Source: a virus
Lineage: Duplodnaviria; Caudoviricetes
DNA: 55,225 bases
IMG/VR virus record: IMGVR_UViG_3300020473_000034
Coordinates: 1-55,225 of that record
Strand: one strand, 5' to 3'
Position 1 is the stretch's first letter. Every line of letters begins with the position of its first letter. Of this stretch, positions 9,285 to 28,100 are shown piece by piece. Position numbers and translations under genes: made by a program. Under the pieces are notes generated by a model. It was not told where the DNA came from. It saw nothing but the letters and a program-made list of their open reading frames with translations, and searched no databases.

Positions 9285-9503
9285 ATGAAAACAACACAAT
9301 TAGAAAAGGACATTGCATTTTGTATTGATGAATTAGACCTTTCTGATGAACAAATAGGAGAGATATTACGTGCATGTGAGAAACTAGGTAACATCAGTTG
9401 TGAATACTTTTGTGAGGAATTTATCTTCGAAGAGTATAACGAAGATGCCCTAGATCGTTACCATGATGATAACTATCTCAAGATAAATTGGTCATTAGAT
9501 TGA
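9285..9503 (+). CDS. Acidic hypothetical protein (72 aa)
   Basis: ORF track. Confidence 0.75.
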   Translation: MKTTQLEKDIAFCIDELDLSDEQIGEILRACEKLGNISCEYFCEEFIFEEYNEDALDRYHDDNYLKINWSLD

Positions 9504-9528
9504 CAATTAATTCCAATAAGTGTATAAT
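9500..9528 (+). promoter_or_regulatory. Host-like sigma70 promoter TTGACA-17-TATAAT
   Basis: Perfect consensus. ATG 9536 lies close to the predicted TSS. Confidence 0.85.
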
Positions 9529-9535
9529 ATAAAGT

Positions 9536-9766
9536 ATGAAATACGTTTACATTATTGACTATTGGATAACATTTCCCTCATCAGAATATGGGGGAATTGT
9601 TATATGTATTGCCGAGACAGATACAGAGGTATTCGAGTTACTTTTAAATGAACAATCGTTCCCTGAAAGTAATACAAACGCTATCATGGAAAGTATTAAA
9701 AGTGCGACCAAATTAGCATTAAAAGATGAATATGAATCTGGTATAATTGAGGCATTTACTACATAA
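9536..9766 (+). CDS. Conserved cyanophage hypothetical protein (YIIDYW..FPSSEYGG)
   Basis: ORF track, directly after the promoter. Confidence 0.75.
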   Translation: MKYVYIIDYWITFPSSEYGGIVICIAETDTEVFELLLNEQSFPESNTNAIMESIKSATKLALKDEYESGIIEAFTT

Positions 9767-9793
9767 ATTAAATTAGCAATTACACTCACTATT

Positions 9794-9958
9794 ATGACAT
9801 TACTTTATGCGATTGAGGAACAAAGTACAACTGGATGGAACAAATTAGATCAACAATATAGACATTTAACAAGAGAAGAATGTAAGACTAAGTATGATTT
9901 TCTAATCCTAGATGGAGCAAATCCAGAAGATTTAAGGATAGTAAGAGACGACCTTTAA
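9794..9958 (+). CDS. Small hypothetical protein (54 aa, ..IEEQSTTGW..LTREEC..G.NP..LRIVR)
   Basis: Manual translation. Confidence 0.65.
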   Translation: MTLLYAIEEQSTTGWNKLDQQYRHLTREECKTKYDFLILDGANPEDLRIVRDDL

Positions 9959-9980
9959 TTAACACTCACTTCGTACAATC

Positions 9981-10382
9981 ATGTCTACTAAGTATATCCC
10001 GGAAGTAAATGATTACGTGATTTGGAATAGACCTAATGGAGATATTGATGAAGGTTGGATATATTTTATTGGTGATATTCCCGAAGTTAAAAAAGGTTTT
10101 CCTACTCGTGATCGTTACCTTACTATAGAAATAGGAACGAAAGATAAGAACCCTTGTGTATATACAAGTGGCAAACCAATGTTACATAAGAAGCATCATA
10201 TTTGCCTACTATGTTATGAACAGTGCTGGAAAGAGTTGGTATTTGTTAAAAGAAGAAAGAGTAAATTAGACGATACGATAATACTAACCGCCGAAGAATT
10301 GTCTGTGGAAAAGTATAAACAATCAGATGATAATAGTGTTGATATGTATAAGTCACAAGAGCACAGATATGAGGATGTGTGA
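9981..10382 (+). CDS. Hypothetical protein (YIPEVNDYVIW...EGWIYF)
   Basis: ORF track. Confidence 0.75.
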   Translation: MSTKYIPEVNDYVIWNRPNGDIDEGWIYFIGDIPEVKKGFPTRDRYLTIEIGTKDKNPCVYTSGKPMLHKKHHICLLCYEQCWKELVFVKRRKSKLDDTIILTAEELSVEKYKQSDDNSVDMYKSQEHRYEDV

Positions 10383-10578
10383 TAACAATCGATTTGAAGA
10401 TTTATTCGTTAAATATCATTGAAACGGTATAATCTGATACATAAAATGTTAAAAATAAGGTTTTAAATACCTTTATAAATATACATCTGTTTATTATAGT
10501 TTTCCACATAGTTGTTAAAAAAGGGGGTGTAATCTGTGGATAAAGTGTTAATTAACTGTGGAAAAGTATTGTGGAAAA
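10304..10578. other. Cluster of five DnaA boxes with an AT-rich tract (candidate origin or DnaA-binding locus)
   Basis: TGTGGAAAA at 10304, 10557 and 10570, TTTTCCACA at 10500, TGTGGATAA at 10535. AT-rich stretch at 10441-10499. Confidence 0.6.
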
Positions 10579-10657
10579 AGTATTATATAGCGTTGTAATA
10601 TGATTTAATTAGTGTTATAAACGTCTTGTAATCTGCCGAGTTGATGCAACCTTTGCG

Positions 10658-10686
10658 AGCATAATATGAGGAAGGCAAGTTGTCAA
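10658..10686 (-). promoter_or_regulatory. Minus-strand sigma70 promoter TTGACA-17-TATGCT pointing into the DnaA-box cluster
   Basis: TGTCAA at 10681-10686 and AGCATA at 10658-10663 on the + strand, with a 17-bp spacer. Confidence 0.6.
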
Positions 10687-10784
10687 GTATCAGGGACGAT
10701 TTTTCAGCAATTCTTAACATTTAGCAACGCAAATACATATATACTATTATGAGTAAATAAAAACACTAAGTAACACTATATGTG

Positions 10785-10813
10785 TTGCAATATTCTGAGG
10801 TTTATGTTATAAT
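10785..10813 (+). promoter_or_regulatory. sigma70 promoter TTGCAA-17-TATAAT with extended -10
   Basis: Consensus match upstream of the ORF at 10837. Confidence 0.7.
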
Positions 10814-10836
10814 AACTCTATAATCACAGGGGAATT

Positions 10837-10980
10837 ATGAACGATTATGATGCCGAATTCGTGTGGGATTATGATAACTCATGCCATGATTTTCTTGAAG
10901 AAGATTCACAGTATGATGAAGATTATGCAAGGTTCGATGATAACAACTATCAAGAACTTGCCTATCGTCATTATGCATAA
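10837..10980 (+). CDS. Very acidic, Tyr-rich small protein (47 aa)
   Basis: Manual translation MNDYDAEFVWDYDN...ELAYRHYA, with an AGGGG RBS. Confidence 0.65.
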   Translation: MNDYDAEFVWDYDNSCHDFLEEDSQYDEDYARFDDNNYQELAYRHYA

Positions 10981-11096
10981 AGGCACGTAAATTTGGTCTT
11001 ATAGACTAACAACAATATAGGCACGATTAGGGCACGCTAAGTATAAACAATTGCGTGTTAGATTGTACTGCGTAGAATTATAAGAACGTCGGGACG

Positions 11097-11125
11097 ATTA
11101 TATCACAAAGTAGAAAGAACTGCAA
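11097..11125 (-). promoter_or_regulatory. Minus-strand promoter TTGCAG-17-TATAAT (extended -10), no downstream ORF
   Basis: CTGCAA at 11120-11125 and ATTATA at 11097-11102 on the + strand. Divergent from element copy 10. Confidence 0.6.
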
Positions 11126-11133
11126 GCGAATCT

Positions 11134-11192
11134 GTGTGACTTTATAAACTGGCACAGGACATATTGCAATGCGTTCAGTAATAGTGTAATAT
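11134..11192 (+). promoter_or_regulatory. Early promoter element copy 10
   Basis: GTGTGAC-tttataaa-CTGGCAC, TTGCAA at 11164-11169, 17-bp spacer, TAATAT at 11187-11192. Confidence 0.75.
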
Positions 11193-11220
11193 TAATATAT
11201 TGATTCGTTAATTGAAAACA

Positions 11221-11346
11221 ATGGAAGACAAATTACTCGAAGATCTTATCAACGAACCAGGTGAAATCTTTGACATCCCAGAGTTACAAACTGACGACAA
11301 ATTTGATGTCGAAAGTTATATTAATGGGGACACAGATTATGCGTGA
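11221..11346 (+). CDS. Small acidic protein (41 aa, ..PGEIFDIPEL..KFDVESYING)
   Basis: Manual translation, after promoter copy 10. Confidence 0.65.
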   Translation: MEDKLLEDLINEPGEIFDIPELQTDDKFDVESYINGDTDYA

Positions 11347-11350
11347 TAAA

Positions 11351-11479
11351 ATGATAAGATATCCAGACGGATTTTATGCGGAAATTGAGAAATATGCCAG
11401 TGAATTAGAGGTCACTTGTGATTACTATCTCTCCGAATTTTATCTCCAAACTAACAACAACTCTTCACCCACTAAATGA
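11351..11479 (+). CDS. Small hypothetical protein (42 aa, ..ASELEVTCDYYLSEF..)
   Basis: 3' part of the track ORF 11261-11479, starting at ATG 11351. Confidence 0.6.
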   Translation: MIRYPDGFYAEIEKYASELEVTCDYYLSEFYLQTNNNSSPTK

Positions 11480-11607
11480 CAACAATTCGTTACTGCTTTC
11501 CTAACAATCAACGATACAAATTAATGTCCTTTAATTCTTATAATAAAGCACTAAAATGCATTGAGTTATTGAAAACAATTGATTGCAAGGTTGAGTTACA
11601 ACAATGA
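11476..11607 (+). CDS. Small hypothetical protein (43 aa, MTTIRYCFPN..)
   Basis: Manual translation, ATGA overlap with the upstream gene. Confidence 0.6.
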   Translation: MTTIRYCFPNNQRYKLMSFNSYNKALKCIELLKTIDCKVELQQ

Positions 11608-11633
11608 CCATGTAATCCTTATTCGTTCGTGAT

Positions 11634-11674
11634 AACAACAGTCCCCCGTATTTATGGGGGGTTGTTTATATTTT
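11634..11674 (+). terminator. GC-rich hairpin ending the early region
   Basis: AACAAC..CCCCCG-tattta-TGGGGGG-TTGTT followed by T-rich sequence. Confidence 0.55.
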
Positions 11675-11776
11675 CAATGGATCCCCTAAGCTATAAACGA
11701 CCCAGATCGACCTTTCGATATAAGGAATATAGAAATTTTTTTTGCTATATAAAAACGACCACAGGGTTTTCAGAGA

Positions 11777-11950
11777 ATGAAAAAAAATTTCGATGATATT
11801 TTTAGCACCATAGAGATCGATCCAGTAACAGATAGATATCATATAACGATACCAGAGGAAATAATTAATGAATTTGGATGGTACGAAGACCTTAGATTAA
11901 AGTGGAATATAGATAGTGGTGAAATCTTTATTACAGAGGCAGATGAGTGA
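11777..11950 (+). CDS. AbrB/MazE/SpoVT-like swapped-hairpin DNA-binding protein (57 aa)
   Basis: Manual translation. ITIPEEIINEFGW...LKWNIDSGEIFI fits the AbrB-family pattern. Confidence 0.65.
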   Translation: MKKNFDDIFSTIEIDPVTDRYHITIPEEIINEFGWYEDLRLKWNIDSGEIFITEADE

Positions 11951-12119
11951 TTCAACATTTCATATCTACTTAAAGGATGAATGTATATTTAAAGATTTAA
12001 ACGAAGAAGAATTCAATATAATATGGGGAAGGATATATAAATCTTATTTTAAGGAAGACATAACATATTCAGAGGTTACGGAAAACCCGACTAAGGTATA
12101 TGAAGAATCTTCATATTGA
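11943..12119 (+). CDS. Small hypothetical protein (MSDSTFHIYLKDECIFKDL..)
   Basis: ORF track, GAGG RBS before ATG 11943. Confidence 0.7.
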   Translation: MSDSTFHIYLKDECIFKDLNEEEFNIIWGRIYKSYFKEDITYSEVTENPTKVYEESSY

Positions 12120-12144
12120 CAATTACTATATAAACTGATATAAT
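12116..12144 (+). promoter_or_regulatory. Host-like sigma70 (middle-type) promoter TTGACA-17-TATAAT
   Basis: Perfect consensus with a TG extension. Confidence 0.85.
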
Positions 12145-12166
12145 TGATATGTAATTACAACAGATT

Positions 12167-12922
12167 ATGGCAAAAGGATTTACAGTAAAGGCAAAGGCAC
12201 CTGTTGCCCAAAAAGCCCCTGAATGGGACTATGCAAAAGCAAAGGAGATGGTCAAGGGAAAATCAGTAGTATTTTGTTTACCTGGTAGAGGAGTATCATA
12301 TGCATTCTTAAAATCTTTCGTTCAGCTTTGTTTTGATCTTGTGCAGAGTGGTGCAAGTATACAAATATCACAAGATTATAGTTCCATGGTGAATTTTGCA
12401 AGATGTAAGTGTCTTGGTGCAAATGTTTTAAGAGGGCCAGATCAAATTCCATGGGACGGAAAGTTAAAGTATGATTGGCAACTATGGATCGACTCGGACA
12501 TTGTTTTTAATTCTGAGAAGTTCTGGCAATTAGTTCTTATGGATCAGGATATTGCAGGTGGTTGGTACTGTACCGAAGATGGTAAGACTACTTCTGTAGC
12601 ACATTGGTTAGAAGAGGATGATTTTCGTAACAACGGTGGAGTGATGAATCACGAGACTATCGAAAGTATATCCAAACGTCGCAAACCATTCACAGTAGAC
12701 TATACAGGTTTCGGATGGTTATTAATTAAGCACGGAGTATTTGAGCACGATGGAATGCCTTATCCATGGTTTGCACCTAAGATGCAGGTATTCGATTCAG
12801 GAGAAGTTCAGGATATGTGTGGAGAGGACGTTTCTTTCTGCTTAGATGCCAAGGAAGCAGGTTTTGAAATATGGTGTGATCCTCGTATAAGGGTTGGGCA
12901 TGAAAAAACAAGAGTCATATAG
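12167..12922 (+). CDS. Conserved cyanophage GT-A-fold glycosyltransferase-like protein
   Basis: LWIDSD (DxD motif), TGFGWLLI, GEDVSFC and RVGHEK motifs. Confidence 0.8.
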   Translation: MAKGFTVKAKAPVAQKAPEWDYAKAKEMVKGKSVVFCLPGRGVSYAFLKSFVQLCFDLVQSGASIQISQDYSSMVNFARCKCLGANVLRGPDQIPWDGKLKYDWQLWIDSDIVFNSEKFWQLVLMDQDIAGGWYCTEDGKTTSVAHWLEEDDFRNNGGVMNHETIESISKRRKPFTVDYTGFGWLLIKHGVFEHDGMPYPWFAPKMQVFDSGEVQDMCGEDVSFCLDAKEAGFEIWCDPRIRVGHEKTRVI

Positions 12923-13067
12923 TATATTTCTAAATGGCAAAGAAGTATTCTCCCAACTCACTGAAGGAGAATACTTTGACCGTATGCAAGATTATGCAAT
13001 TGAATTTTACCAAACTGGGCATCCCACTGAGGATGAATTGAAAACTGTTATTAACACGGAGGACTAA
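12900..13067 (+). CDS. Small hypothetical protein (55 aa, ..LTEGEYFDRMQDYAIEFYQTG.P)
   Basis: Manual translation, overlapping the end of the upstream gene. Confidence 0.65.
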   Translation: MKKQESYSIFLNGKEVFSQLTEGEYFDRMQDYAIEFYQTGHPTEDELKTVINTED

Positions 13068-13213
13068 TGGCAAAAGCAAAGACGGGACTAACAGGTGCTG
13101 ATACTATAGAGGCAACACCGAAGAAGTCTCGACAAGGAAGGGGCAAACACTCAAAATACTCGGCAACATCCCGTAACTCGGCTCGCAAAAGATATAGAGG
13201 GCAAGGAAGATAA
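13067..13213 (+). CDS. Small very basic protein (48 aa, ..PKKSRQG...KRYRGQGR)
   Basis: Manual translation with a GGAGG RBS. The YRGQGR C-terminus is recalled from T4-like marine phages upstream of gp25. Confidence 0.75.
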   Translation: MAKAKTGLTGADTIEATPKKSRQGRGKHSKYSATSRNSARKRYRGQGR

Positions 13214-13219
13214 ATAAAG

Positions 13220-13247
13220 GACTCCATTCTATATGGGGTCTTTTTTT
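13220..13247 (+). terminator. Rho-independent terminator
   Basis: GACTCCAT-tctat-ATGGGGTC followed by a T run. Confidence 0.75.
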
Positions 13248-13259
13248 ATTAACAATTCA

Positions 13260-13267
13260 TATAAATA
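13260..13267 (+). promoter_or_regulatory. T4-type late promoter TATAAATA
   Basis: Exact gp55 consensus just upstream of the first structural gene. Confidence 0.8.
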
Positions 13268-13284
13268 GATAAAAAACTATTACC

Positions 13285-13818
13285 ATGTCTTCTGTCTATA
13301 GACCCTTTCCAGAAAAATTGGGAGGGCAAAACGCAGCCACCTTTGTAGGAAATGAAGGGGATTTATTTTACGATCCAACAACCACCACTCTTAGAATTTC
13401 TGATGGAAGCACTCCAGGTGGTGTAGGAATTGGAGGTGGTGGTTCTACTACTTTAGATAAAATAGAAGAAGGTAATACTTCTGTTGAAACTATCGATACA
13501 GGTAATAATGGTACGATTAAATTCGAAACAGAAGGAACTGATCGTTGGAAGATCACTAGTGCTGGTCACATCATTCCATATGCTAATGCTGCTTATGATA
13601 TAGGTAATGCAGAGTATAAGGTAAGACACTTATTCTTATCTGATAATACTATGTACTTCCAAGGAGATTTCCTTAAAGTAGCACAACATAACGCAGGTGG
13701 AGCTGCTCAATCACCAAGTTATCTTATACCACTTGCCAAGTTAAAGGACGCATTGAATGCATCTGCTGACTATGAAGCATTCAAAGCAGCAATTCTTGCT
13801 ATTGGTGATGCTAGTTGA
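13285..13818 (+). CDS. Virion structural / short fibre-like protein with an Mtd-N-like N-terminal motif
   Basis: GDLFYD..TTTLRISDGSTPGG N-terminus and IIP..NAAYDIG.AEYKVRHLFLS fibre motif. Late promoter upstream. Confidence 0.65.
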   Translation: MSSVYRPFPEKLGGQNAATFVGNEGDLFYDPTTTTLRISDGSTPGGVGIGGGGSTTLDKIEEGNTSVETIDTGNNGTIKFETEGTDRWKITSAGHIIPYANAAYDIGNAEYKVRHLFLSDNTMYFQGDFLKVAQHNAGGAAQSPSYLIPLAKLKDALNASADYEAFKAAILAIGDAS

Positions 13819-13844
13819 TGTATAATATAGTTTTGGAATAAAGA

Positions 13845-13852
13845 TATAAATA
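13845..13852 (+). promoter_or_regulatory. T4-type late promoter TATAAATA
   Basis: Exact consensus upstream of gp25. Confidence 0.8.
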
Positions 13853-13868
13853 AATAAAAACTTTGTAT

Positions 13869-14270
13869 ATGGCCATTACAAGGATATCAAGATCATTCAA
13901 GGACATTAGTTTGTCTTTTGTGCCACATCCAGTGACAAAAGATCTTCCCATATTAAAAAATGAGAATGCGATTCGTAGATCGGTAAGGAATATTGTGGAA
14001 ACAATTCCTACTGAGAAGTTTTTTGATTCTGATTTTGGGTCTGACGTATATAAAAGTTTATTTGACTTTGTTGATTTTGGTACTGCATCTATTATACAGG
14101 ATCAAATTAAAACATGTATTGATAATTTCGAACCCAGAGTAAATAATGTGAATGTTGAAGTAAATCCACAACCTGATGATAATTCATTTGAGTGTATAGT
14201 TATATTTGATATTATTGGTCAAGAATTTCCTACACAGGAATATTCATTCATATTAGAAGCAACAAGATAA
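13869..14270 (+). CDS. gp25: Baseplate wedge subunit gp25
   Basis: FKDISLSF..HPVTKDL...NENAI..SVRN...GS...FEPRV motifs, directly upstream of gp6. Confidence 0.9.
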   Translation: MAITRISRSFKDISLSFVPHPVTKDLPILKNENAIRRSVRNIVETIPTEKFFDSDFGSDVYKSLFDFVDFGTASIIQDQIKTCIDNFEPRVNNVNVEVNPQPDDNSFECIVIFDIIGQEFPTQEYSFILEATR

Positions 14271-16181
14271 ATGACTCTTACCAAATTTTCAAATTTAGAT
14301 TTCGATCAAATAAAAACATCGATTAAAGATTATCTTAGGTCAAACACAAACTTTTCAGATTTTGACTTTGAGGGGTCCAATTTCTCTGTTTTAATTGATA
14401 CTCTTGCATATAATACCTATATCACTGCATTTAACTCTAATTTGATTGTGAATGAGTCGTTTTTGGACTCTGCAACCGTTAGAGAGAACGTTGTGTCTCT
14501 TTCTAGCAACATTGGGTACACACCCCGTTCTAGGACTGCTGCGATAGCACAGGTAGATTTAGAATTAACCATATTAGATGATGCTAATTCGGTTAATGCA
14601 GTATCTTTACAACCAGGATTGGTTTGTACGGGAGATATATCAGACAGTTCTTACCTATTTTCAATAGTAGATAAGGTAACTACACCAGTTGTTGATAAAA
14701 TTGCGAAATTTGAAGGGTTAAACATCTATCAGGGGACATTTTTAAAGAAAAAATTTGAATATGATGGTTCATTAGACCAAAGATTCATTTTAGATAACCC
14801 AAATATTGATTCATCTAAGGTAAGAGTGTATATTAGCTCCGATCAATCCGAACTTGGTATTGAATATTCGGCAGTAAATAACATTATTTCTATCAATTCT
14901 GACTCTAGGATCTATTTTATACGTGAAATACAGGATGAAAGGTATGAATTAAGGTTTGGTGATGGTATTTTTGGTAAAAAATTGGGTGATTATACTGGTT
15001 CTGACGGTAAATACATTACTGTTCACTATATGACCACAGAAGGAGAAGATGGTAATGGTGCACAATCATTTACATATGCTGGAATAGTCAATAATGAGAA
15101 CGATGTATCGCAAAATATAACAAATGTTCGTGTAACTAAGAAGCAATCTTCGCAAAATGGGTCTGCAATTGAGAATATTGACTCAATTAAGTACTATTCA
15201 CCACTACTTTATTCCGCACAGAATCGTGCAGTGACTGCTAGGGACTATGAAGCTATTATTAAGAGAATATATCCAAATACAGAGTCTGTTTCTGTTGTTG
15301 GTGGTGAAGAATTAGACCCACCAGAGTTTGGAACGGTTAGAATAAGTATTAAACCAACCAATGGTAGCTATGTTTCGGACTTTTCTAAGTCAAATATACT
15401 ATCAAAGTTAAAACAGTACTCTGTATCTGGTATTAATCAGTCTATTGTAGACCTCAAAGTACTATATGTGGAAATTGATTCAAGTGTTTATTACAATGAT
15501 GCCTTTATATCTGACCCAAATACATTAAAATCAAGTGTAGTTAGTACATTAACAAACTATTCAAAGTCTGTTAACTTGAATAAATTTGGTGGTAGATTCA
15601 AATATAGTAAGGTGTTACAAACTATTGATGATACTGATCAAGCAATAACATCAAATATCACTAAAGTAAGGATTAGAAGGGATTTAAAGGTCTCTGTTAA
15701 CCAATTTGCACAATATGAATTGTGTTTTGGTAATCAATTCCATGTAGATCCTAAAGGATTTAATATTAAATCTACTGGATTTAATATTCCTGGAGAACAA
15801 TCCACAGTATATTTGACTGATGTACCTAAAGAAGATCGTAAAACTGGAGCACTAGCAATTATAAAACCAATTAATGATACTGAATCAAGAGTTATTGTTG
15901 GTAATGCAGGTGTAGTTGATTATATTAAAGGTGAAGTTACTCTCACTACTGTCAAAATAACCTCAACAGTAAAGCCAAATGATATTATAGAGATACAGGC
16001 ATTTCCAGAATCCAATGATGTCGTAGGATTGAAGGATTTATACATCTCATTTAGCATATCTGAAAGTACAATAAATATGGTAAGAGATGTTATTGCATCT
16101 GGAGATGAAATTTCTGGGGTTAAATTCACCAAAGATTTCTATACATCAAGTTATTCTAACGGGAAAATAACAAGAGAGTAG
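14271..16181 (+). CDS. gp6: Baseplate wedge subunit gp6
   Basis: LDFDQIK..FSDFDFEGSNFSVLIDTLAYNT..ESFLDSA, FGDG and QNRAVTARDY motifs. Confidence 0.95.
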   Translation: MTLTKFSNLDFDQIKTSIKDYLRSNTNFSDFDFEGSNFSVLIDTLAYNTYITAFNSNLIVNESFLDSATVRENVVSLSSNIGYTPRSRTAAIAQVDLELTILDDANSVNAVSLQPGLVCTGDISDSSYLFSIVDKVTTPVVDKIAKFEGLNIYQGTFLKKKFEYDGSLDQRFILDNPNIDSSKVRVYISSDQSELGIEYSAVNNIISINSDSRIYFIREIQDERYELRFGDGIFGKKLGDYTGSDGKYITVHYMTTEGEDGNGAQSFTYAGIVNNENDVSQNITNVRVTKKQSSQNGSAIENIDSIKYYSPLLYSAQNRAVTARDYEAIIKRIYPNTESVSVVGGEELDPPEFGTVRISIKPTNGSYVSDFSKSNILSKLKQYSVSGINQSIVDLKVLYVEIDSSVYYNDAFISDPNTLKSSVVSTLTNYSKSVNLNKFGGRFKYSKVLQTIDDTDQAITSNITKVRIRRDLKVSVNQFAQYELCFGNQFHVDPKGFNIKSTGFNIPGEQSTVYLTDVPKEDRKTGALAIIKPINDTESRVIVGNAGVVDYIKGEVTLTTVKITSTVKPNDIIEIQAFPESNDVVGLKDLYISFSISESTINMVRDVIASGDEISGVKFTKDFYTSSYSNGKITRE

Positions 16182-16182
16182 T

Positions 16183-19100
16183 ATGATACAAACAGGATTT
16201 GAAAGTAGAGTAAAGATTCAAGATATTATATCGAATCAACTTCCAAATTATATTTTGGATGAGAGTCCTCTTACCTCTGACTTTCTTAAACAATATTATA
16301 TTTCACAAGAATATCAGGGTGGTCCTATCGACCTTTCTGATAATTTGGATCAATATTTAAAGCTTGATAATTTAACTCCTGATGTAATAGTCGATTCAAC
16401 AACATTATCAGAAGATATTAGTAGCACAGATTTAACAATAACAGTATCGGATACAAAAGGATTTCCGAATAGTTATGGATTATTGAAGATTGATAATGAA
16501 ATTATTACATATACAGAAAAAACATCTACTACATTTACTGGATGTGAACGTGGATTTAGTGGTATTACAAGTTATCATCAATCTTTAAATAGTGAAGAAT
16601 TAATATTTTCTACTTCAGATGCTGCAAGTCATAAGAAGGATTCAAGTATTCAAAATTTAAGTTCTTTATTTCTTAAAGAATTTTATAAAAAAACCAAAAG
16701 AACATTTACTCCAGGATTAGAAGATTCCACTTTCACTTCAGATTTAGATGCTGGTAATTTTATAAGAGAAGCAAAATCTTTATATGATACAAAAGGAACG
16801 GATGAATCGTTCAGAATACTGTTTAATATTCTTTATAATGAAACTCCAGATATAATTAATCTTGAGGAAAGATTAATTAAACCATCAACCTCAAAGTATG
16901 TTAGAAGAAGAATTGCTGTTGGGGAGGTAATTCAAGGAAATCCTACAAAATTAAAAGGGCAATCAATTTTTAAGAGTAAACTTAATAATACTGATATTAA
17001 TGTTTCTGTATCAGAAGTAGAAGCTTTTGTCAGAACTGGTATAGGAACTTATTATAAATTTGGATTATTCATTGATAATAGTGGATCTGATGAAATTTCA
17101 AATACGTTTAATATTATTCCAAACTCAAGAGTAATTGGAAATGTATCTGTTGGTTCTTCAATTATTACTGTAGATTCTACCGTTGGATTTAGTACTTCAG
17201 GAACTTTAATAACTGGAGATAACACATCTATTCAGTATACAAGTAAAACAATAAATCAATTTTTAGGTGTAAGTGATATTACTTCTGATATTAAATCAAT
17301 GGATAATGTTAGAAGTGATGATTATTATTATGGATATGAGGATGGTGATATTACTAAAGAGGTAAGATTAAGATTTACTGGTGTTCTGTCAGAATTTGTA
17401 CAAGACGGAAAACTAATTGTTGATGAAGGTGATATTATTGGGATAAAAAATATTGGAGATAAAATTGATAATCCAGAAAATAATTCAACTTTTAAAGAAA
17501 TATTTGCAAATTCATGGATTTATAATAGTAGTTCCTCATATAAACTAAAATATGATCCACTTCAAGCTACATCTGTAACATTTTTTAGTCCTGTAGATAG
17601 ATCTAGCTTAAAATATGGTGATGATATAGAAATTGTTGATGATGGAAGTAAAGATATTGTATATCCAACACCTACTAGTGATTTACCATATGTTAGTCAA
17701 GAACTTGAAAATGGTGAAGTTGGAGTTAATTTATCGAATTATACTCATACTTTGGGGGAAAATAGTCATCAATCATTAAGAAGAAAACTAAAGACGGCAA
17801 ATAGTTCTAATACACCAATACAATTTGGTAATGATAATGTAACATCAGATGTTCAAAATGTATATGTAAAAGATGATGTAGCATACGTAGCATCAAATTC
17901 ATTACCATCATATAGTTCAATAGGATCTTTTCCATATAATGAACAAATAACAGTTAATATTAGAACTTCAACTCTAGATTTTGATGGTTCTGCTGGTGGT
18001 AAATTGGAGGATATAATTGATGTTAGTAGTGATTTATATTCTACAATATCTTTTGAATCTCCTCATCCATTTAAAAATGGAGATAAAATTTATTATGATC
18101 CATCAGAATCTAGTTTAGTTGGATTAGAAACGGGAATTTATTATATTAAAAAAATTAGTGGTAATAAAATAAAATTATATGGTTCTACTTCTGGTATTTT
18201 AGGTGATAGGTATATTCCTCTTGGATATCCTCCTACAGAGTTTGATGGGAATCACAAATTTACATTATATTCCCAAAAATCTGGAGTAATTGGACCTCAA
18301 AAATTATTAAAGAAATTTCCATTAAAACAGAATCTTAAAAATGGTACATCAGTAGAAACACTTCCTGGTGGGACTGGTATGTTGGTTAATGGTGTTGAAA
18401 TTAATAATTATAAGTCATTAGATAAAATTCATTATGGTCCAATAAATTCAGTTTCTGTATTAAATTCTGGTGAAGATTATGATGTTATAAATCCACCAAA
18501 TATAACTTTATCATCACCAATTAGTACTGGTACAACTGCACTTATACATCCAGTGTTATCGGGTAAGATTGATAAAATTTTATTAGATAATCAAGATTTT
18601 GATATCGACTCTATTGTTTCTATAGGAATTACTGGTGGTAATAGTAGTGGATACGCTCTACAACCAATATTTAAGACAAGATATAGAGAAATTGAATTTA
18701 ATGCTAAAAAATCACCAGCTGGTGGTATTAATACTTCACCTGGTGATCCAGCATCATGTCAAATTACATTTTTATCAAATCACAATCTTACTACAGGTCA
18801 GTCTGTAGTCTATGAAAGTATTGGAAATCCAGAAGTTGGTGTTGGTATTGGAACTAGTACACTAGTTAATTTTTCAACCTATTATGTTGAAAGAATTAAT
18901 CAAGATACAATAAGACTTTATAATAGTCTTTCTGATGCTAATGGTACTTCATTGAATGGTATTGGTGGTATTGGAATTAATACAATTCATCTTAATGGTA
19001 GTGGGTCTGGTGTTCAAAGGTTTGTAGTTAATCAAAAAAATACATTATCAAGTGTCAAGGTATTAGATGGTGGTAATTATACAAATAGAAGTTTACTGGT

Positions 19101-22100
19101 GAAACCATCTGGAATTTCTACTTCTTTGAATAATATAACGTTTAAAAATCATGGTTTTAATAGTGGTGAATTAATTCAATATTCTGCTGTTGATGGAATT
19201 TCTAATAAAATTGATGGATTATCATTTGATAACCAATATTATGTTCTTAAAGATAATGATGATTCGTTCAGATTATGTGATGCTGGTATTGGTGGAACTA
19301 TTTCACAAAACTATATTTCTAGAAATATAGTTTCATTAGGTTCTACAACTGGAGTTGGATATCAACAATTTAAATATCCTGATATTAAAGGTTATTTGCA
19401 AATTATTAATAGTGATGGTGGACAAAATAATATTGAGGAAATTCCAATAACTCCTGTAATTAAAGGTTCGATTACTGATATTATACTTTATGAAAGTGGG
19501 TCTGGATATGGTTCAACTATCCTCAACAATATAAAGAGTCCAATAGTTACTATAAAGACTGGAAAAGATGCAGAATTAAGACCATTTTTTAATAATGGGA
19601 AGATTAGTGATGTTAGTGTTGAATATGGTGGAGAAGATTATTATTCATTACCTGATTTGGAGGTTGTTGATCCTACAGGAAGTGGTTCTGGAGCTGAATT
19701 AAGACCTATTATTACAAATTTAAAAATAACAGGTGTTGAAATTTCAAATGCAGGTATAGGATACTCATCATCTTCTTCAATTTTAATTAAATCTTCTGGT
19801 AAAAATTTAATATTAAAACCAGAAATTAGATCACTTACAGTTAATAACCAAGTTAGATTTAAGGAAGATAGTAAACATTATCAATTAGTAGATACAGAGA
19901 ATAATTTAAAATATACTGCATATGGATATAAACCAGATACATTTGGTGATTCTGTCACTGAAGGATCTAGTGCATCAAAATTAATTGGATGGGCATATGA
20001 TGGGAACCCAATATATGGTGGATATGGATTAGTAAGTCCAAATGAAAATCCATCAAATCCTAATGCACCTACAAAGAGAATGCAATCTGGATATACTTTA
20101 GATATATCTAAAGTTGTTGATAGGCCCATAGGATTTTCAAATGGTTATTTTGTTGATGATTATACTTATGATAATAGTGGTGATTTGGATGAATATAATG
20201 GTAGATTTGAAAAAACTGTAGATTTTCCTGATGGTGTATATGCATACCATGCAACGTTAGATGAAGATAATGATCCTACATTTCCTTACTTTATAGGAAA
20301 CAAATACAGATCTATTCCAATAGAAGAAAATCTTACAACTTTTGATCAATTATCATTCGATTTTAATACTTCTGGAGTTTTAAGAAATACTCTTCCATAT
20401 AAAGTTTCCGATATTAATGCGGATAATGATTTTATTGTCGAAAGTTCAGAAGTTGATACTCAAGAAATAGAAATTGAATCAATTTCAAGTGGAAATATAT
20501 CAGAATTTGATTTATTGAATAGGGGTTCTGGTTATAAAGTAAATGAAAATTTAAATTTTGACAATTCAGGAACTGAAGGTCAAGGATTGCTTGCAAGAGT
20601 TAGGTCTTTAGATGGTAAAGATTTGCAATCTATTAATACTGATATTGAAACTTATACTAATTCAGTATTAACATGGAATGATAGAAAATTAACTGTAACA
20701 GTTGATCCACATCATAATTTTAATGAGAATGATTATATTACAATTTCTGGAATTTCTACTGATTTATCTCATATTAATGGATCATATAAAGTTGGAATAA
20801 CATCATTTGTTTCAAATACAATATCAACTATTGCTGCATCACCATCAGCTGGATTTACCACTGAAATATATGTTTCAAGAATACCAACTGTTTCTATTGG
20901 AAGTAGTATACAGATAGGTTCTGAAAAGATGAAGATTCTGAATATATTTGAAAATCTGAATGTTCTTAGAGTAAAAAGAGGTAATAATTCTAGTGATTAT
21001 ACAGTAGAAATTCCAGAAAATAGTAGAGTAGAGTTTTTAACAAATTCTTTTAAAATTGATGAAAAAGTAGATTATTTTGATTCTTCTATTTCGGATAAGA
21101 TTTATTTCAACCCATCTAAGTCGGTTGGTGTGGGTGTAGATGATGGAACTACTCATTCAGTAGTATTTAATTTTGCAGGTAATGATATTGTAAGAAATAT
21201 ACCCATAAAACAATTATATATTGAAAATCATCCATTCCACAACAATCAAAAAGTTAATTTAACTGTTCCTAGTGGTTATGGTAATGCTAATAATTTTGGA
21301 AATGTATCAATTTCAACGAATAAAACATCCACACAATTTGATTTACCAACATCTGATTTATATATTGTCAATAAAGGTATTAATACTATAGGAATTAAAA
21401 CTGGAATTGGTACAGCTAGTGATGGATATGAATATGAAGAGGTTTATTTCCGTAATATACACAGCATGGATGATGATAATTATTTACTAGAAAGTGCTGA
21501 TGATAAACAGGTTTTATGTAAAGCTCAAAGGATTAGAACAGTAGTATCTGTTTCTACATCACATAATTTAACCAATAATGATAGTGTTTCTTTAGAAGTT
21601 AAACCTAATATTTCTTCTGGAATTGGATCTGATGTAAATGTAGAAGTAAAAAGAGATATTCTTACTGGACATTTATTAATTAATCCAATTACGTTTAGTA
21701 GTGGTGATATTAATCTTGGTAATAACACCATTACTTTGGGTAGTAAAGGAAGTAATTTAAAAACAGGAGATAAGGTTTTATATTCGGGTGATGCTACAGG
21801 ATTAACACCAGGAAATTATTATGTTTATAAAGTTGATGATAAAATAATTAAATTATGCCAAACATATTATGATGCAACTAGAATAGTACCTAATATTGTA
21901 GATATTACAGGCACTGGTTCTACGGGACAAATAATTAGCTTAGTTAATCCACAAATTCTTGCAACAAAAAATACTGATCTAGTTTTTGATCATTCAGATT
22001 CTTCATTAACTGGATATAATTTTAATTTATATTATGATCAAGAATTTAAAAATAGATTTGTTGGTACTGGTAAAACTTCATCATTTAATGTCTCTGCACA

Positions 22101-25100
22101 GTCATCAATAACTACTGTAAGTTATGGTAGTAGTTTATCTAGGAAATTATATTACAATATAGAAAAATCTGGGTTTATTTCCACTTCTGATACAGATGTT
22201 ATTAATAATTCAGAAATAGTATATATTGATAGTGTATATCATGGTGATTATAAAATTTCTGGGGTTGGAAATACAGATTTTACAATATATTTAAATAAAA
22301 TTCCAGAAAAATCTTCATATACTTCAACACAATGTGATTTACTTAAATATACTACTACTTCAAAATCTTATAGTGGTCCTATTGATAAAATAGAGATAAT
22401 TTCTGGTGGGTCTGGATATAAAAAAGTTCCAACTTTCGTTGGTGTTGGGTCTACATCAATCGGTAAGGATGCTGTAATAATACCAAAATCTAAAAATATA
22501 GGTAATGTATCTAAAATTAGAATAATTAACCAAGGATTTGAATATTCATCAGATAAAACATTAAATCCAACTGCGTATGTTTCACCAATAATTGAGTTGA
22601 AAAATTCAAATTCAATTGGAATAGTTACTGTAACTTCTGGTGGAAAAAATTATCTATCATCACCAAATATTGTTATTGTTAATTCTGAAACTAGAAAGTT
22701 AATTGATAGTGGATTCTTAGAACCAAAAATGATAGATAATTCTATTTTAGATGTAAATATTGTTGAAAAACCCCATGGACTTCCAGATTCTACAGTAACA
22801 TTAAAAACAACAAATAATACTAATGGAATTACAATTTCTTCTGTAGATTCTTCAACTCCAGCAAGTGATACTGGATATACTGTAATATTAGTTACACCAA
22901 CACTTGGTTTTAAAGAAGCACCATTTAAGGCTGGGGATAAAGTATTTATTGAAGGTATTGAAAAATATGGTGTACTTGGTGATGGTTTCAATTCGGAGAA
23001 TCTTGGATATGAATTTTTAACAATAGAATCTATTGTAGGTGGAGATAATCCAAATCCATTTAAATTTACAGTTAGTGCTGTTGGATTAACAACAATGGTT
23101 GGTACTGCAGTTACAACACCAACAGGATTTACGGCAGTTATCCCAGAATCTGATTATCCAACATTAATTGCCACTCAATCTAAAGAAGGGTTTGATATAG
23201 GTGAATTTATTACAGTAAATTCTATAGACTCACAAATCAAAGTAACATCAAATGATGATTCATCTATTAAAGTTACTGGACTTGGTGTTGATGATTTATC
23301 TGTTGGTGATGTTATTCTTGGAAAAACATCAGGTAATAAAGCAACTATATCAAAAATTACAGAAAATCATGGTAAATATGAAATTGATTTTTCGTCTGTG
23401 AAGGATGTTGGTTGGATTGATTCGGTTGGAAGACTAAATGATGATAGTCAAGTAATACCTGATAATGATTATTACCAAAATTTATCATATTCTGTTAAGA
23501 GTTCAATTACTTGGGATACATTACAAACTCCAGTCAATAATGTCCTTCATACAAGTGGATTGAAGAATTTTGCTGATACTGGAATTACTTCAACTGCTTC
23601 TGTTGGTATAGGTTATTCTATTGGAACTACAATAATTAGAGATATTTTTGAGGAGAAGAGAGTTGATGAAATTCAAGGTGTTGATCTAGTTAGAGATACT
23701 GAGGTTACAGGTGATGTTGCTAGATTAATAGAATTTAAAAATATAAGATTATCTGATTATATTGCATGTTTAACAAATGAAGTATTTACATTTGATAATA
23801 TTAATCAACAGTTTTCAAATTTAGAAGATACTGAAACATATTATGTAGATCTTATGGATATACCTGCAGATGGTAGGTATCAAAATTTTATAGTTAGGGT
23901 TGAAAGTAATACTAATACTGGAATATCAACACAAGTTCAATTATCAGAATTGGTTCTGATAAATTCTTATCCATATTCTAATAATGATCAAAATGTATTA
24001 TTGGAAAAATATCAATTATTTAATTCTGATAATGATGGATTTGTTTCTGTTGAAAAAGATCAATTAGGAACATTTAAAATTGTTAAAGATGAATTAACTG
24101 CAGTAAATACTCTTAGATTTTATCCAAAAGAAAAGTTTAATGTTGACTATGATTTAAAAATTCTTAAAGGTGAATTTACAAATGTAGTTTCTACTGCAGC
24201 AACTGTTAAAGTTGGTCCGATTGACAACAGTATATTTGTTCAACAAGTTACTAGTGGATCTACAAATGATATTTTATCCGTTGGTATTACTAGTATAAAT
24301 TCATTCTTTGTTAATGCACAAATTGTTGATAAATCAACTGGACAATTAAATTTTGTTGAAGCTTATGTTACCCATAATGGTCAAGATAGTTTTATATCAG
24401 AATCATATATTGACTCTGAACCATCTATAATTTCATCAAATAGAATTGGTATTTTAACTTCGAATTTAGATTCTGGAACATTAAAATTGAGTTATGAGAA
24501 TGATACATCTACTGATGTTATTGTTAGATCAAAGGTTGTTGGTTTTGGTACAACTGGATTTATTACTCCAGAAGGACATACTGGTGTTGGAACATATAGA
24601 TTCCAGAATCCAGCAGAACCAGATGGATATGAAAGGTCTGTAATCTATCAAGGAATATCTACTAGTGGTGTAGGAAAGACAACTATATTAGGGATAAGTT
24701 CCTCTTTATTTAATTCTGCTACATCTATAGTAGAAGTTAGTATAGGATCATCCAAAGCAGTACATGAAGTATTGAGTTTACATGATGGTATAGATGTTTA
24801 TGTGCAACCAGCACAATTCTTGGCTGATAGTTCCAATAATTTGGGATTAGGTACTTTTGGTGGTGAATATGATCCTGCTAGTGGTGATTATGTGGTAAGT
24901 TTTTACCCTGATAACTTAGTAGGTGTAACAACAGTATCAATATTTAATAAGTGTTTTTATAGATCTATTGATAGATTTAATATTTCCGACACTTTAGTTT
25001 ATGGTAGTGGATATACTGAAAATTTAGATTTTAAATTGTATAATGCTATTAATGGATTTAGAATTAGTAAGAAAGATTTTGAATTAACTACAAATTCAAT

Positions 25101-28100
25101 ACCAGTATTCTCTAAAAAAGTTAATCCTAGTTTCGAATCAGATTTAGTTCTTTCTACAGGTAAATTTAAGGTTAATGATCACTTCTTCAGAACCAACCAA
25201 ACCTTAAGTTATGAACCAAAATCAACAATACTTGGTATTGGATCTACTGCAATGCAGTATATGTCTGCAGATAACATAATGGATACATTACCATCTACAG
25301 TCTTTGCTATAAAGAATGATGATAATACATTCCAAATTTCTACTACAAGAACTGGAACTGCTGTTACCTTTACAGGAATTGGAGAAGGAAATGCTCATAC
25401 ATTCTCTATGGTCAATCCAAATGAAAAATCAATAATAAGTATTGATGATATTGTCCAATATCCAATAACACCAACTCCAATATCTCACAAATTAAGATAT
25501 AATGATGGTGGTCAAATAGGTTTTGCTAATACTATTTTCTCTTTGAGTGGAATATCAACTATACTTGTTGATGATATAATAAAAATTGATAATGAGTATA
25601 TGAAGGTTATCAACGTTGGTGTTGGAACAACTGGTGCTGGACCAATCACACCAGGAATTGGAACATTCCCATGTGTAGGAGTTGAAAGGGGTGCTCTTGG
25701 TACTCTTTCATCTATACACACAAACGAGGCTGTAGTTGATAGATTTAAGGGTAGTTTTAATATAGTTGATAGCACTCTTTGGTTTGCTACCCCACCTAGA
25801 GGAAATCCTACATTAAGTATATTACCAAATGGGTTGAAATTCCCAACTTCTGATTTTAATGGAAGAACATTTTTAAGAAATGATTATACAACAAATGATG
25901 TATATGATGATATTAGTGATCAATTTAATGGATTAACAACCTCATTTACATTGACTGTAGGTGGTGCAAATACTATAGGTATTGGAACTAGTGGTGGAAA
26001 TGGAGTTTTATTCATAAATGGAATATTCCAAACACCAACAACAGACAATAATCCAGCAAATAATTTTAAAATTATAGAAACTGGTAGTGGTGCTACTGGT
26101 GTAACTAGTGTTGTATTCTCTGGCATAACATCCACAGATGGAACATTAATTAAATCTGAGTATGATATTAATAGAAATGAATTACCAAGAGGTGGAATTC
26201 CAATTTCCTTCGGTTCAACTACTGGTTCTGGATATGCACCTCTTGTTGGAGCAAATGTAAGACCTATCTTAGATGCTAGTGGATCAATTACAAGTATAGT
26301 TGGTGTTGCAACCACTGGGGCAGCACTGGGAGTACATACAGCAGTGTATGATAATACTAGTGGAATATTAACAGTTACTACTATTGTAGATCATCAATTA
26401 GTTGATGGTGGACATGTTGATGAGGTTAAATTATCTCGTTTAGGATTCACATGTCCATCTGGAAGTGGTATAACAACAAATTACTTCCCAAGTGGAGCAT
26501 ATGGAGATACATTCTCTATTATTGGTGTAGAAGATACTAATAAGTTTAGTGTCAATGTTGGAACAAGTACTATTCCACATACTTATGTTGGTGCTGGAGA
26601 TAGTTCTGGAACTGTTTTCCCATGGTATGGAGATCTTACATTAGGTTCTGGTTATAATGGTATAGTTCCTATTTCAGTAACAGTTAAAGATAGTGGATAT
26701 GATCATGAATTTATAAGTGCCACTAATAATGCTATTACTAAAACTACATGGAATGGTACTGGAATTACTCCTACAAATGCTATTTTTGATTCACTTTCTG
26801 GAATTGTTACGTTTACGGCAACTTCTCATGGCTTGGTTACAGGTGATAAAGTAGGTATTGCAACAGGGTCATTAACATTTAAGTGTTCTAAGGATAATTA
26901 CGCATCAGAACATAAGTATCCTCGTGGACCATTTACTCATCAGTTTGATAGTGCTGATGCTAATGCTGTTAATAACTCATTACAACCTATTGGTGCTGAT
27001 TACAACGCCCTAACAGGTGACATGGTATTGACATTTGCTTCTGCTCATAATATAAGTAATGGAGCATTTATAACAATTACTGATAATTCTATTAGATTTA
27101 AGTGTGCTAAAGATAATTATACAACAATACATAGTTATCCAAGATTATCAGATCCTGCATCTGGGTCTAATTTAACGGTTTCTAATGCAACTGCTAATGA
27201 TCTTACAGTTAATGTTGGAGCATCTAATACAAAAGAAGATCCAGTAACTGGTATTTTAACTACAGTTACTAAGTTAAATAATAATATCTTTAGTGTATTT
27301 GTTGGAAGTGCAGTTGGTGAAGATGCTAATATCACAGCTACTCCAAAAACAGTTAATACTCATGTATTTGATAGTGCAAATAGTACTTTAAGTAATTGTA
27401 TTTTCATTAATAATTGGAGTGGTTCAGGTGGTCAAAAATCAATATCAGGTGCTGCATATACTGCATCTACTGGAGAATTGATGTTAGATATTGGGACTAC
27501 AGGTATGCCTTCAGCAGGTTCAGATAAAGTTGGTATTAAGACTAGTTCTCTAGCATTTAGATGTAATCAAGATGATTATAATAGTGTACATAAGTATCCT
27601 AGAACAAGTGACCCAGTTAATGGAACATTAATTGATATTACTAAGGTGGATACTAACACAGGAATGATTTTTGTTAATGTTGGAAAATCCAATACAAATT
27701 GTGGTGGTGCGTTAGACTTTACAGTAGTTGGTGGTGGAACAAGTTATACCAATCCTAAGATATTTGTTACAGAACCTTCTTATGCTGGTTTAGGTATAAC
27801 AGGAGTTTCAAGAGTTGGTGAAGGTCCAACGACAGATACTGGTTTTGGACTGCGTTTGGATGTTGAAGTAGGTGCTGCTCAGACTTCTGGTATAGGATCT
27901 GGTTTTTATGAAATTTCTAATTTTGATATTACTAGAAGTGGATATTCATTTAAACGTGGTGATGTTTTCTCACCAATTGGATTGGTTACTGATAGAAAAT
28001 TATATGAACCATTTGAACAAGCAACTATTGAAGTTGATAATATCTACACTGATAATTTCTCAATGTGGCAGTTTGGAGAATTTGATTATATAGATTCAAT

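Follow-up and report, generated by a model that had tools for sequence, protein, structure and literature searches.

A single-copy non-coding cassette with clustered DnaA boxes as a candidate replication origin of a T4-like cyanomyovirus

The locus and its features

The window analysed here is the whole of the IMG/VR virus record IMGVR_UViG_3300020473_000034, 55,225 bases with a completeness estimate of 26%, and it derives from a T4-like cyanomyovirus, a virus infecting marine cyanobacteria. Between two genes of the plus strand, a gene-free stretch carries an AT-rich core that ends in a late promoter motif, an array of DnaA boxes, and a minus-strand promoter that faces both (Table 1). Judged by comparison with related sequences, the locus represents one form of a non-coding cassette that is single-copy and common to P-SSM2-like and other cyanomyoviruses, and it is the best, still unproven, candidate for the place where replication of the virus starts. 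From 13.8 kb onward the window encodes baseplate, tail, terminase, portal, and capsid proteins, and all of its credible genes are on the plus strand. The nearest isolates in a blastn search with 12001-20000 are S-SKS1 (71%) and S-SRM01 and P-SSM2 (69% each).

An earlier note on this DNA, made from the letters alone, had described the locus as gene-free. In agreement with this, no credible open reading frame (ORF), tRNA, or Rfam family was found in 10383-10836; the Rfam search covered the whole window at the gathering threshold and 10300-11300 even at E <= 1. Two minus-strand ORFs within the cassette, 10402-10509 and 10583-10720, were rejected as they are not kept in relatives.

Table 1. Coordinates of the cassette and its immediate surroundings in the window
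Feature	Position	Strand	Remarks
Upstream ORF	9981-10382	+	133 aa; phrog_522; Cys/His-rich, ...HHICLLCYEQCW... then KRRKS
DnaA box, upstream	10304-10312	-	TTTTCCACA; within the last 80 nt of the upstream ORF, separated from the main array by the AT-rich core
AT-rich tract, candidate unwinding element	10441-10499		84.7% AT vs 67.1% in the window; top 0.15% of 59-nt windows
Near-invariant core ("anchor")	10452-10483	+	holds the imperfect hairpin AAGGT/ACCTT at 10457-10473
Presumed T4-type late promoter motif TATAAATA	10474-10481	+	reads rightwards over the box array
Conserved spacer CTGTTTATTAT	10487-10497	+	between the late promoter and the first repeat
DnaA box 1	10500-10508	+	TTTTCCACA; box closest to the AT-rich core
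DnaA box 2	10535-10543	-	TTATCCACA
DnaA box 3	10557-10565	-	TTTTCCACA; extended repeat TGTGGAAAAGTAT
DnaA box 4	10570-10578	-	TTTTCCACA; 13 nt start-to-start from box 3
Initial transcribed region, CGCAAAGGTTGCATCAAC...	10618-10657	-	moderately conserved; alignment of 31 distinct cassettes
Sigma70-type promoter TTGACA-17-TATGCT	10658-10686	-	reads leftwards into the boxes and the AT-rich core; start probably near 10651
A-rich tract, possibly UP-element-like	10687-10712	-	upstream of the -35 hexamer; A-runs in most of 31 aligned cassettes
Small acidic ORF	10837-10980	+	47 aa, ending in LAYRHYA; own promoter TTGCAA-17-TATAAT at 10785-10813

Clustering of the DnaA boxes

The whole record holds five perfect matches to the DnaA-box consensus TTWTCCACA (as given in the accessible text of PMC4674748), and all of them fall within the 275 bp between 10304 and 10578. 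Four lie in the array, within 80 bp, and the fifth at 10304, exactly as the earlier note had placed them. Their total number is ordinary: 2.27 +/- 1.67 are expected and five or more occurred in 11 of 100 shuffles, and the window-wide count by which the note had proposed to look for enrichment therefore gives none. Their clustering exceeds chance by a wide margin. When the window was simulated 2000 times with a first-order Markov model, at most two sites fell within either 80 bp or 280 bp, compared with the observed four and five, respectively; two sites within 80 bp arose in 15 of the 2000 runs and three in none.

A near-invariant core between opposed promoters

The AT-rich tract that had been noticed at 10441-10499 was confirmed by its composition and its rank among windows of the same size (Table 1). 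It lies between the boxes of the two sides, is strongly conserved, and is a candidate unwinding element. The core within it is the most conserved part of the cassette. In blastn searches against phage records, its 32 nt show 100% identity with P-SSM2 and P-SSM5, beside diverged flanks, and longer matches occur in single-cell-derived marine viruses. An exact 25-mer of the core is found in 24 IMG/VR contigs, and a relaxed 20-mer at 44 IMG/VR loci (two of these are unrelated coding matches) and in at least 119 metagenome stretches (approximately 15 of the 80 fetched are unrelated). The near-invariant span measures 20-32 nt, and the cassette is single-copy both in the window and in the complete 252-kb genome of P-SSM2. 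The stem of the hairpin in the core is broken without compensation in approximately 10 of 38 distinct cassettes, indicating that it is as DNA, and not as a hairpin in RNA, that the core functions. On the minus strand this hairpin is followed by an A-run and not by a U-run, which argues against a maintained terminator. A plus-strand promoter-like sequence, TTGAAA-17-TAAAAT, was observed directly left of the core at 10419-10447, where many relatives have a GTAT...GATAC inverted motif.

The core ends in TATAAATA, which we take to be the T4 late promoter. The motif occurs six times on the plus strand of the window and never on the minus strand. The other five copies lie 24-36 nt ahead of ORF starts, mostly those of structural genes, whereas the next ORF after the copy in the core is 363 nt off. 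A CTGTTT(A/T)TTAT-like spacer follows the motif in most cassettes of all classes described below.

From the opposite side, the minus-strand promoter reads towards the AT-rich core. A lone match of this kind carries little weight, as 24 promoter-like sites are present in 9500-12500 compared with 17 +/- 4.3 in shuffles; the promoter is supported because it is kept in relatives. It was found in 31 of 34 distinct cassettes as TTGAC(A/G), a spacer of exactly 17 variable nucleotides, and TA(C/T)G(C/G)T or TAGAAT, with TGn ahead of the -10 hexamer in most aligned promoters, and the three exceptions form a single sublineage with the variant TTGACT...TAAGAC. Fixed hexamers separated by a free spacer of constant length indicate a promoter rather than an RNA or a coding sequence. 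The promoter facing the cluster, which the earlier note had read from the window and which lies at 10686-10658, thus gains support from its conservation in relatives. Its -35 hexamer is the canonical TTGACA and no MotA box is present, which sets it apart from MotA-dependent middle promoters; to our knowledge, cyanomyoviruses have no MotA.

A repeat module that is swapped among relatives

From left to right, the cassette consists of the AT-rich core ending in TATAAATA, the CTGTTT(A/T)TTAT spacer, a repeat module, a segment of approximately 40 nt, and the minus-strand promoter. The module falls into distinct classes, which we counted over 112 distinct downstream sequences. Class A (AAGGATAGTATCCTT together with GAGTATC) accounts for 49 of them, class B (TTCTCAATA-type repeats in both orientations) for 23, class C, that of the DnaA boxes, for 19, and class D (AATCTGTATGTA repeats) for four, and the remaining 17 are unclassified, some being unrelated sequences. 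Strict box counts in the combined set from IMG/VR and GenBank are bimodal: 37 of 49 rows have no box, and the other 12 have two to four. DnaA-box modules make up about one sixth to one quarter of the distinct cassettes and occur in at least three different flank backgrounds. Besides the phage of the window, at least three further lineages have arrays of perfect DnaA boxes. In other cassettes the position of the boxes is taken by unrelated repeats, and a DnaA-box module is therefore optional. The place itself is well defined, in that the first box or repeat starts 16-21 nt past TATAAATA across the module classes.

Within class C, the first box is on the plus strand and 18-19 nt past TATAAATA in nine of ten representatives; the tenth, L063, has the decayed form TTTTCAACA instead. 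Beyond it, at +31 to +98, come one to four minus-strand boxes. Three diverged class-C sublineages have an additional minus-strand box beyond the core, at -178, -188/-189, and -109, within upstream sequences that differ from one another, and the box at 10304, which in the lineage of the window lies in the 3' end of the upstream ORF, is therefore part of the design. When the strict boxes inside the cassette are compared with those of the whole contig, four class-C contigs give 3/3, 3/3, 3/4, and 3/5, and the 252 kb of P-SSM2 hold seven scattered boxes with none in the cassette. The modules of different class-C sublineages cannot be aligned except for the 9-mers, and the flanks of the boxes differ. 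The 9-mers are under selection: in three independent within-lineage pairs, 103 of 108 box positions are kept, compared with 336 of 402 positions in the rest of the module (Fisher p = 5.8e-4).

The class-C contigs fall into S-RIM12/ACG-2014g-like, S-B05/P-TIM68-like, and S-SKS1/P-SSM2-like lineages. The promoter side and leader of the window are 86% identical to those of a class-B cassette (L050) and 71% to those of another class-C cassette. Since class C is not one clade by flanks, the boxes were either exchanged as a module or gained repeatedly at one and the same site. Among cultured phages, the Synechococcus phage Bellamy has a divergent cassette without boxes, and blastn searches with three of the four class-C sublineages as queries found no cultured phage with a box module. 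In one class-C sublineage, the 5-nt spacer of the first inverted box pair reads ACCTC in one of two relatives (L057 and L086) and, as its reverse complement, GAGGT in the other, which suggests that the segment was inverted through the inverted boxes. The earlier note had made conservation across cyanomyoviruses a check on its reading. The ensemble of boxes, AT-rich tract, and promoter is indeed kept in relatives, but most cassettes carry other repeats.

Comparison of the boxes with cyanobacterial sites

The prevailing 9-mer of the window, TTTTCCACA, is the cyanobacterial "species-specific" DnaA box, for which in vitro binding is reported in Cyanothece in the accessible text of PMC4674748; the recognition of this 9-mer as a cyanobacterial variant by the earlier note agrees with that source. 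The variants that occur across cassettes, namely TTTTCCACA, TTATCCACA, TATTCCACA, and rarely TTGTCCACA, are at the consensus or one step away from it.

When the module was compared with 401 cyanobacterial genomes by BLAST, the best matches covered only the box array of approximately 48 nt, at 80-90% identity. Because the matches are limited to box arrays, the cassette uses the host motif without being captured oriC DNA; no extended similarity was found in these genomes. Four fetched cyanobacterial genomes contain clusters of seven perfect boxes each, in two orientations and beside an AT-rich tract. Five small cyanobacterial genomes (1.6-1.9 Mb) of possible hosts all encode DnaA, and in four of them (G257, G321, G281, and G352; 1.6-1.7 Mb) no two perfect boxes lie within 60 nt. 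Perfect boxes may be packed more densely in the phage array than at the origins of genomes this small. A scan of genome contigs for triple boxes gave no picocyanobacterial record among the 80 matches listed. The class-A palindrome GGATASTATCC was also considered as a host site and rejected, as one site was present in one of the five small genomes, which is not above the control.

A candidate origin that docks host DnaA

The cassette of the window combines features of two kinds of origin. As in an oriC, perfect boxes of the host consensus are clustered, here around an AT-rich tract, and as in T4 oriF and oriG, a promoter reads towards the AT-rich element. We propose that it serves as a cis element akin to an origin of the T4 oriE/oriF type, on which host DnaA docks, a reading that we find plausible while holding it with somewhat less than even confidence. 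Early in infection, host RNA polymerase would fire the minus-strand promoter, and host DnaA would sit on the boxes that flank the AT-rich core to its left and right and aid its opening. The minus-strand transcript would form or stabilise an R-loop from which phage DNA synthesis is primed, in the manner of T4 oriF and oriG and probably oriE. Later, transcription from TATAAATA in the opposite direction would shut the site. Relatives with other repeat modules would use different DNA-binding factors at the same position. An extension of this idea, which we offer tentatively and consider possible but doubtful, is that cyanomyoviruses share one modular origin consisting of an early promoter, an AT-rich core, and an opposed late promoter, with a docking array that is swapped by lineage and through which DnaA is hijacked here.

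Several observations weigh against an origin that docks DnaA. Cassettes without DnaA boxes make up 37 of the 49 rows and 93 of the 112 distinct sequences, some of them unrelated, and because most relatives keep the cassette without boxes, DnaA is dispensable for its core function. The core-proximal box points the other way from the AT-proximal boxes in the four cyanobacterial clusters. In the pair formed by the window and L035, 32 of 36 box positions are kept compared with 113 of 134 elsewhere, which is not significant, and single boxes decay. The distance from the promoter to the core ranges from 73 to 283 nt across cassettes. A GC-skew switch at the locus, for which the earlier note had suggested looking, is absent: the skew is positive to the left and to the right of the locus in the window and throughout the complete P-SSM2, where the cassette lies at 65.8 kb, a null result that is weakly informative because nearly all genes are on one strand. 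Moreover, an inverted repeat opens every module class, and over 112 related, non-independent sequences the initial 66 nt of the module form slightly more stable folds than shuffled sequences do, with a mean z of -0.73 on the plus strand and -1.20 on the minus strand. In one cassette (L235), both arms of the first inverted pair have changed together (TTGTCCACA-gggg-TGTGGACAA), a paired change that a constraint on a hairpin or dimer site would explain as well as DnaA would. Given the inverted repeats, the arms of L235, and the folding of the module, a dimer-site, cruciform, or hairpin constraint may act on this part of the cassette.

These points also bear on how the locus should be named. The earlier note had called it oriC-like, which is justified as a resemblance but not as membership, since there is no copy of a host oriC and no skew switch, and the boxes are optional in relatives. 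The same note had offered a hybrid origin, using host DnaA together with a transcript primer, as one of two readings. The promoter and the AT-rich layout, which are like those of T4 R-loop origins, speak for such a hybrid, whereas DnaA is inessential to the cassette and most relatives are without boxes.

Alternative explanations

DnaA is also a transcription factor, and the cassette could be a transcription switch in which proteins bound to the array, here host DnaA, which could report the replication state of the host, control the opposed promoters without any role in replication. In such a switch, which we consider rather unlikely, the array could act as a roadblock at approximately +10 of the late transcript or through antisense interference. 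The convergent early and late promoters are conserved, the modules are interchangeable like operator sites, and the position of the first box or repeat, 16-21 nt past TATAAATA, is at the very start of the late transcript, all of which a switch would explain. It would leave the extra box on the far side unexplained, however, and the first 363 nt past the late promoter are free of genes. A T4-type late promoter needs no extended conserved core, and the conservation beyond TATAAATA, with 32 nt identical to P-SSM2, exceeds such a need. The second reading of the earlier note was a sink resembling datA, in which the array would titrate or inactivate host DnaA as phage genomes build up and thereby halt host initiation. 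The boxes are conserved, and each genome copy brings four to six perfect ones, denser than in four of the five small cyanobacterial genomes of possible hosts. The boxes are, however, fixed in place with respect to the promoters and the core, which a sink would not require, and because most relatives keep the cassette with unrelated, non-DnaA repeats at the same place, a dedicated sink is weakened to the point of being improbable. We likewise see little chance that a phage protein or another host protein binds the 9-mers and that their match to DnaA is mimicry or coincidence. Such a binder would be in keeping with the private repeats of the remaining module classes, for which no binder is known, and with the repeat of the window reaching past the box as TGTGGAAAAGTAT. 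Against it, only the 9-mer core is common to the sublineages, with different flanks, and the variants TTTTCCACA, TTATCCACA, and TATTCCACA depart from the DnaA consensus by one step at most. Furthermore, neither a DnaA-like nor another DNA-binding domain was found in the 36 ORFs of 1-13.9 kb (26% of the genome being available), and the type of the upstream gene is independent of the module class.

A small non-coding RNA gene is a quite unlikely explanation, in which an early minus-strand RNA of approximately 100-300 nt with a lineage-specific middle would be antisense to late transcripts, the boxes being part of the RNA or irrelevant. Downstream of the conserved promoter lies a 40-nt leader of moderate conservation and no ORF, and the inverted repeat that opens every module class and the two changed arms of L235 would suit an RNA. 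The region from the promoter to the core (10445-10652, 208 nt) shows no excess folding stability, however, with z values of -0.03 on the minus strand and -0.35 on the plus strand, which is the level of shuffled sequences, and no Rfam match was obtained at E <= 1. The sole terminator-like hairpin is the uncompensated one in the core, with its A-run on the minus strand. Identical 9-mers recur in modules that cannot be aligned, where a structural stem could vary freely, and there are unpaired extra boxes, one of them beyond the core. Of the marks of a small-RNA gene, a promoter is thus present, but a terminator, a conserved structure, and a known family were not found. Four marine metatranscriptome runs contained a fraction of 0.05-0.16 of the sampled words of the stretch. 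The X4 RNA-library contigs cover 10391-11300, one of them spanning 10505-10942, and those of X1-X3 run rightwards from approximately 10640-10662. The ends of the X1-X3 contigs fall where conserved and variable sequence meet, probably because the assembly branches there between strains. Because strand, ends, and level are unreadable from these contigs and DNA carry-over is possible, they speak neither for nor against transcription.

Comparison with known origins and DnaA-binding systems

Early and late transcription of T4 oriE, which lies in the RepEA/RepEB region, run in opposite directions, as we propose for the cassette. In the accessible text of a review (PMC3016281), oriE is described as a set of iterons, whose role is undefined, together with an early promoter, kept in syntenic regions of relatives. 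The likeness to the cassette lies in a T4-type phage having a non-MotA early-mode promoter beside a cluster of short repeats kept in relatives (PMC3016281). The iterons of oriE are evenly spaced direct 12-nt repeats, whereas the 9-mers of the cassette are in mixed orientation with spacings of 13, 22, and 35 nt, correspond to the box of the host initiator, and belong to a module that is swapped among lineages; the two are likened by layout only. The same source describes oriF (uvsY) and oriG (gene 34) as a promoter with an A+T-rich unwinding element and an R-loop primer (PMC3016281). These origins resemble the cassette in the promoter leading into an A+T-rich element, in the transcript as the proposed primer, and in the shut-off by late transcription or UvsW (PMC3016281). 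Their promoters are MotA-dependent middle promoters, their minimal region is approximately 100 bp, and DnaA is not mentioned in the accessible part of the review (PMC3016281), whereas the cassette has a sigma70-type promoter 73-283 nt from the core with an array of protein sites in between.

Cyanobacterial origins, which usually lie beside dnaN, share the 9-mer consensus (PMC4674748, accessible text) and the clustering of boxes in two orientations by an AT-rich tract. The cassette differs from them in having no extended homology, in its opposed promoters and late-promoter core, in the flipped proximal box, and in the optional nature of its boxes. E. coli datA resembles the locus in having approximately five clustered DnaA boxes outside the chromosomal origin. 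It needs IHF and has no promoter or AT-rich-core architecture, whereas the boxes of the cassette are at a fixed position inside a promoter cassette. Lambda ori/pR, P1 oriR, and iteron plasmids such as pSC101, F, and RK2 recruit host DnaA via boxes next to an AT-rich region and iterons, and in lambda transcription activates the origin. These replicons encode their own initiator (such as O or RepA) and are not T4-type, whereas no cognate initiator gene was found adjacent to the cassette.

The origins of T4-type phages are not known to depend on host DnaA. A conserved single-copy cassette in which host DnaA boxes stand by the core and an early promoter, independently in several lineages, would change this picture. 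If the proposal is true, the cassette would be the first origin of a T4-type phage to be assisted by DnaA, and other lineages would dock other factors via their private repeats. The locus offers a concrete and testable origin candidate for marine T4-like cyanophages. It suggests that abundant ocean viruses couple their replication, or their switch from early to late expression, to the host initiator through a repeat module that can be swapped, and its other versions point to further DNA-binding partners. For cyanomyoviruses, the accessible text of PMC2984593 mentions only a predicted theta origin in Syn9 and treats the origins of other phages as unknown. The element was not found in the accessible published literature on cyanophage DnaA boxes, iterons, and the origins of T4-like cyanophages.

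Neighbouring genes and additional repeats

ORFs of the upstream type (9981-10382 in the window) adjoin cassettes of classes A, B, C, and D, with no co-variation between the type of this gene and the module class. The small LAYRHYA ORF is the constant right-hand neighbour, with homologues beside classes A, B, C, and D, and lies outside the cassette proper; it has no Pfam or PHROG match. Searches of PHROGs with the cassette neighbours returned only families of unknown function.

To the right of the LAYRHYA ORF, the next gene-free stretch (10981-11260) contains three of the six GGCACG/CGTGCC hexamers of the window, at 10982-11036, and P-SSM2 has repeated TGGCACA at the equivalent place (L001, 2040-2340). 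This stretch may be a second repeat-bearing control region. In many relatives, arrays of the palindrome ATCTCGAC(T/G)AGAT lie to the right of the cassette (L001, 1690-1860; L003, 1690-1880; L004, 1770-2000; also L056, L069, and L084). The ATCTCGAC palindrome is often located inside the spacer of consensus early promoters (TTGACA-ATCTCGACTAGATCTG-GTATAAT), resembling a repeated operator. The window itself has a single copy of CTCGACKAG, at 44727, and none near the cassette. Farther to the right, two giant plus-strand ORFs, 16183-29577 (4464 aa) and 31248-38825 (2525 aa), are located inside the baseplate and tail-fibre module.

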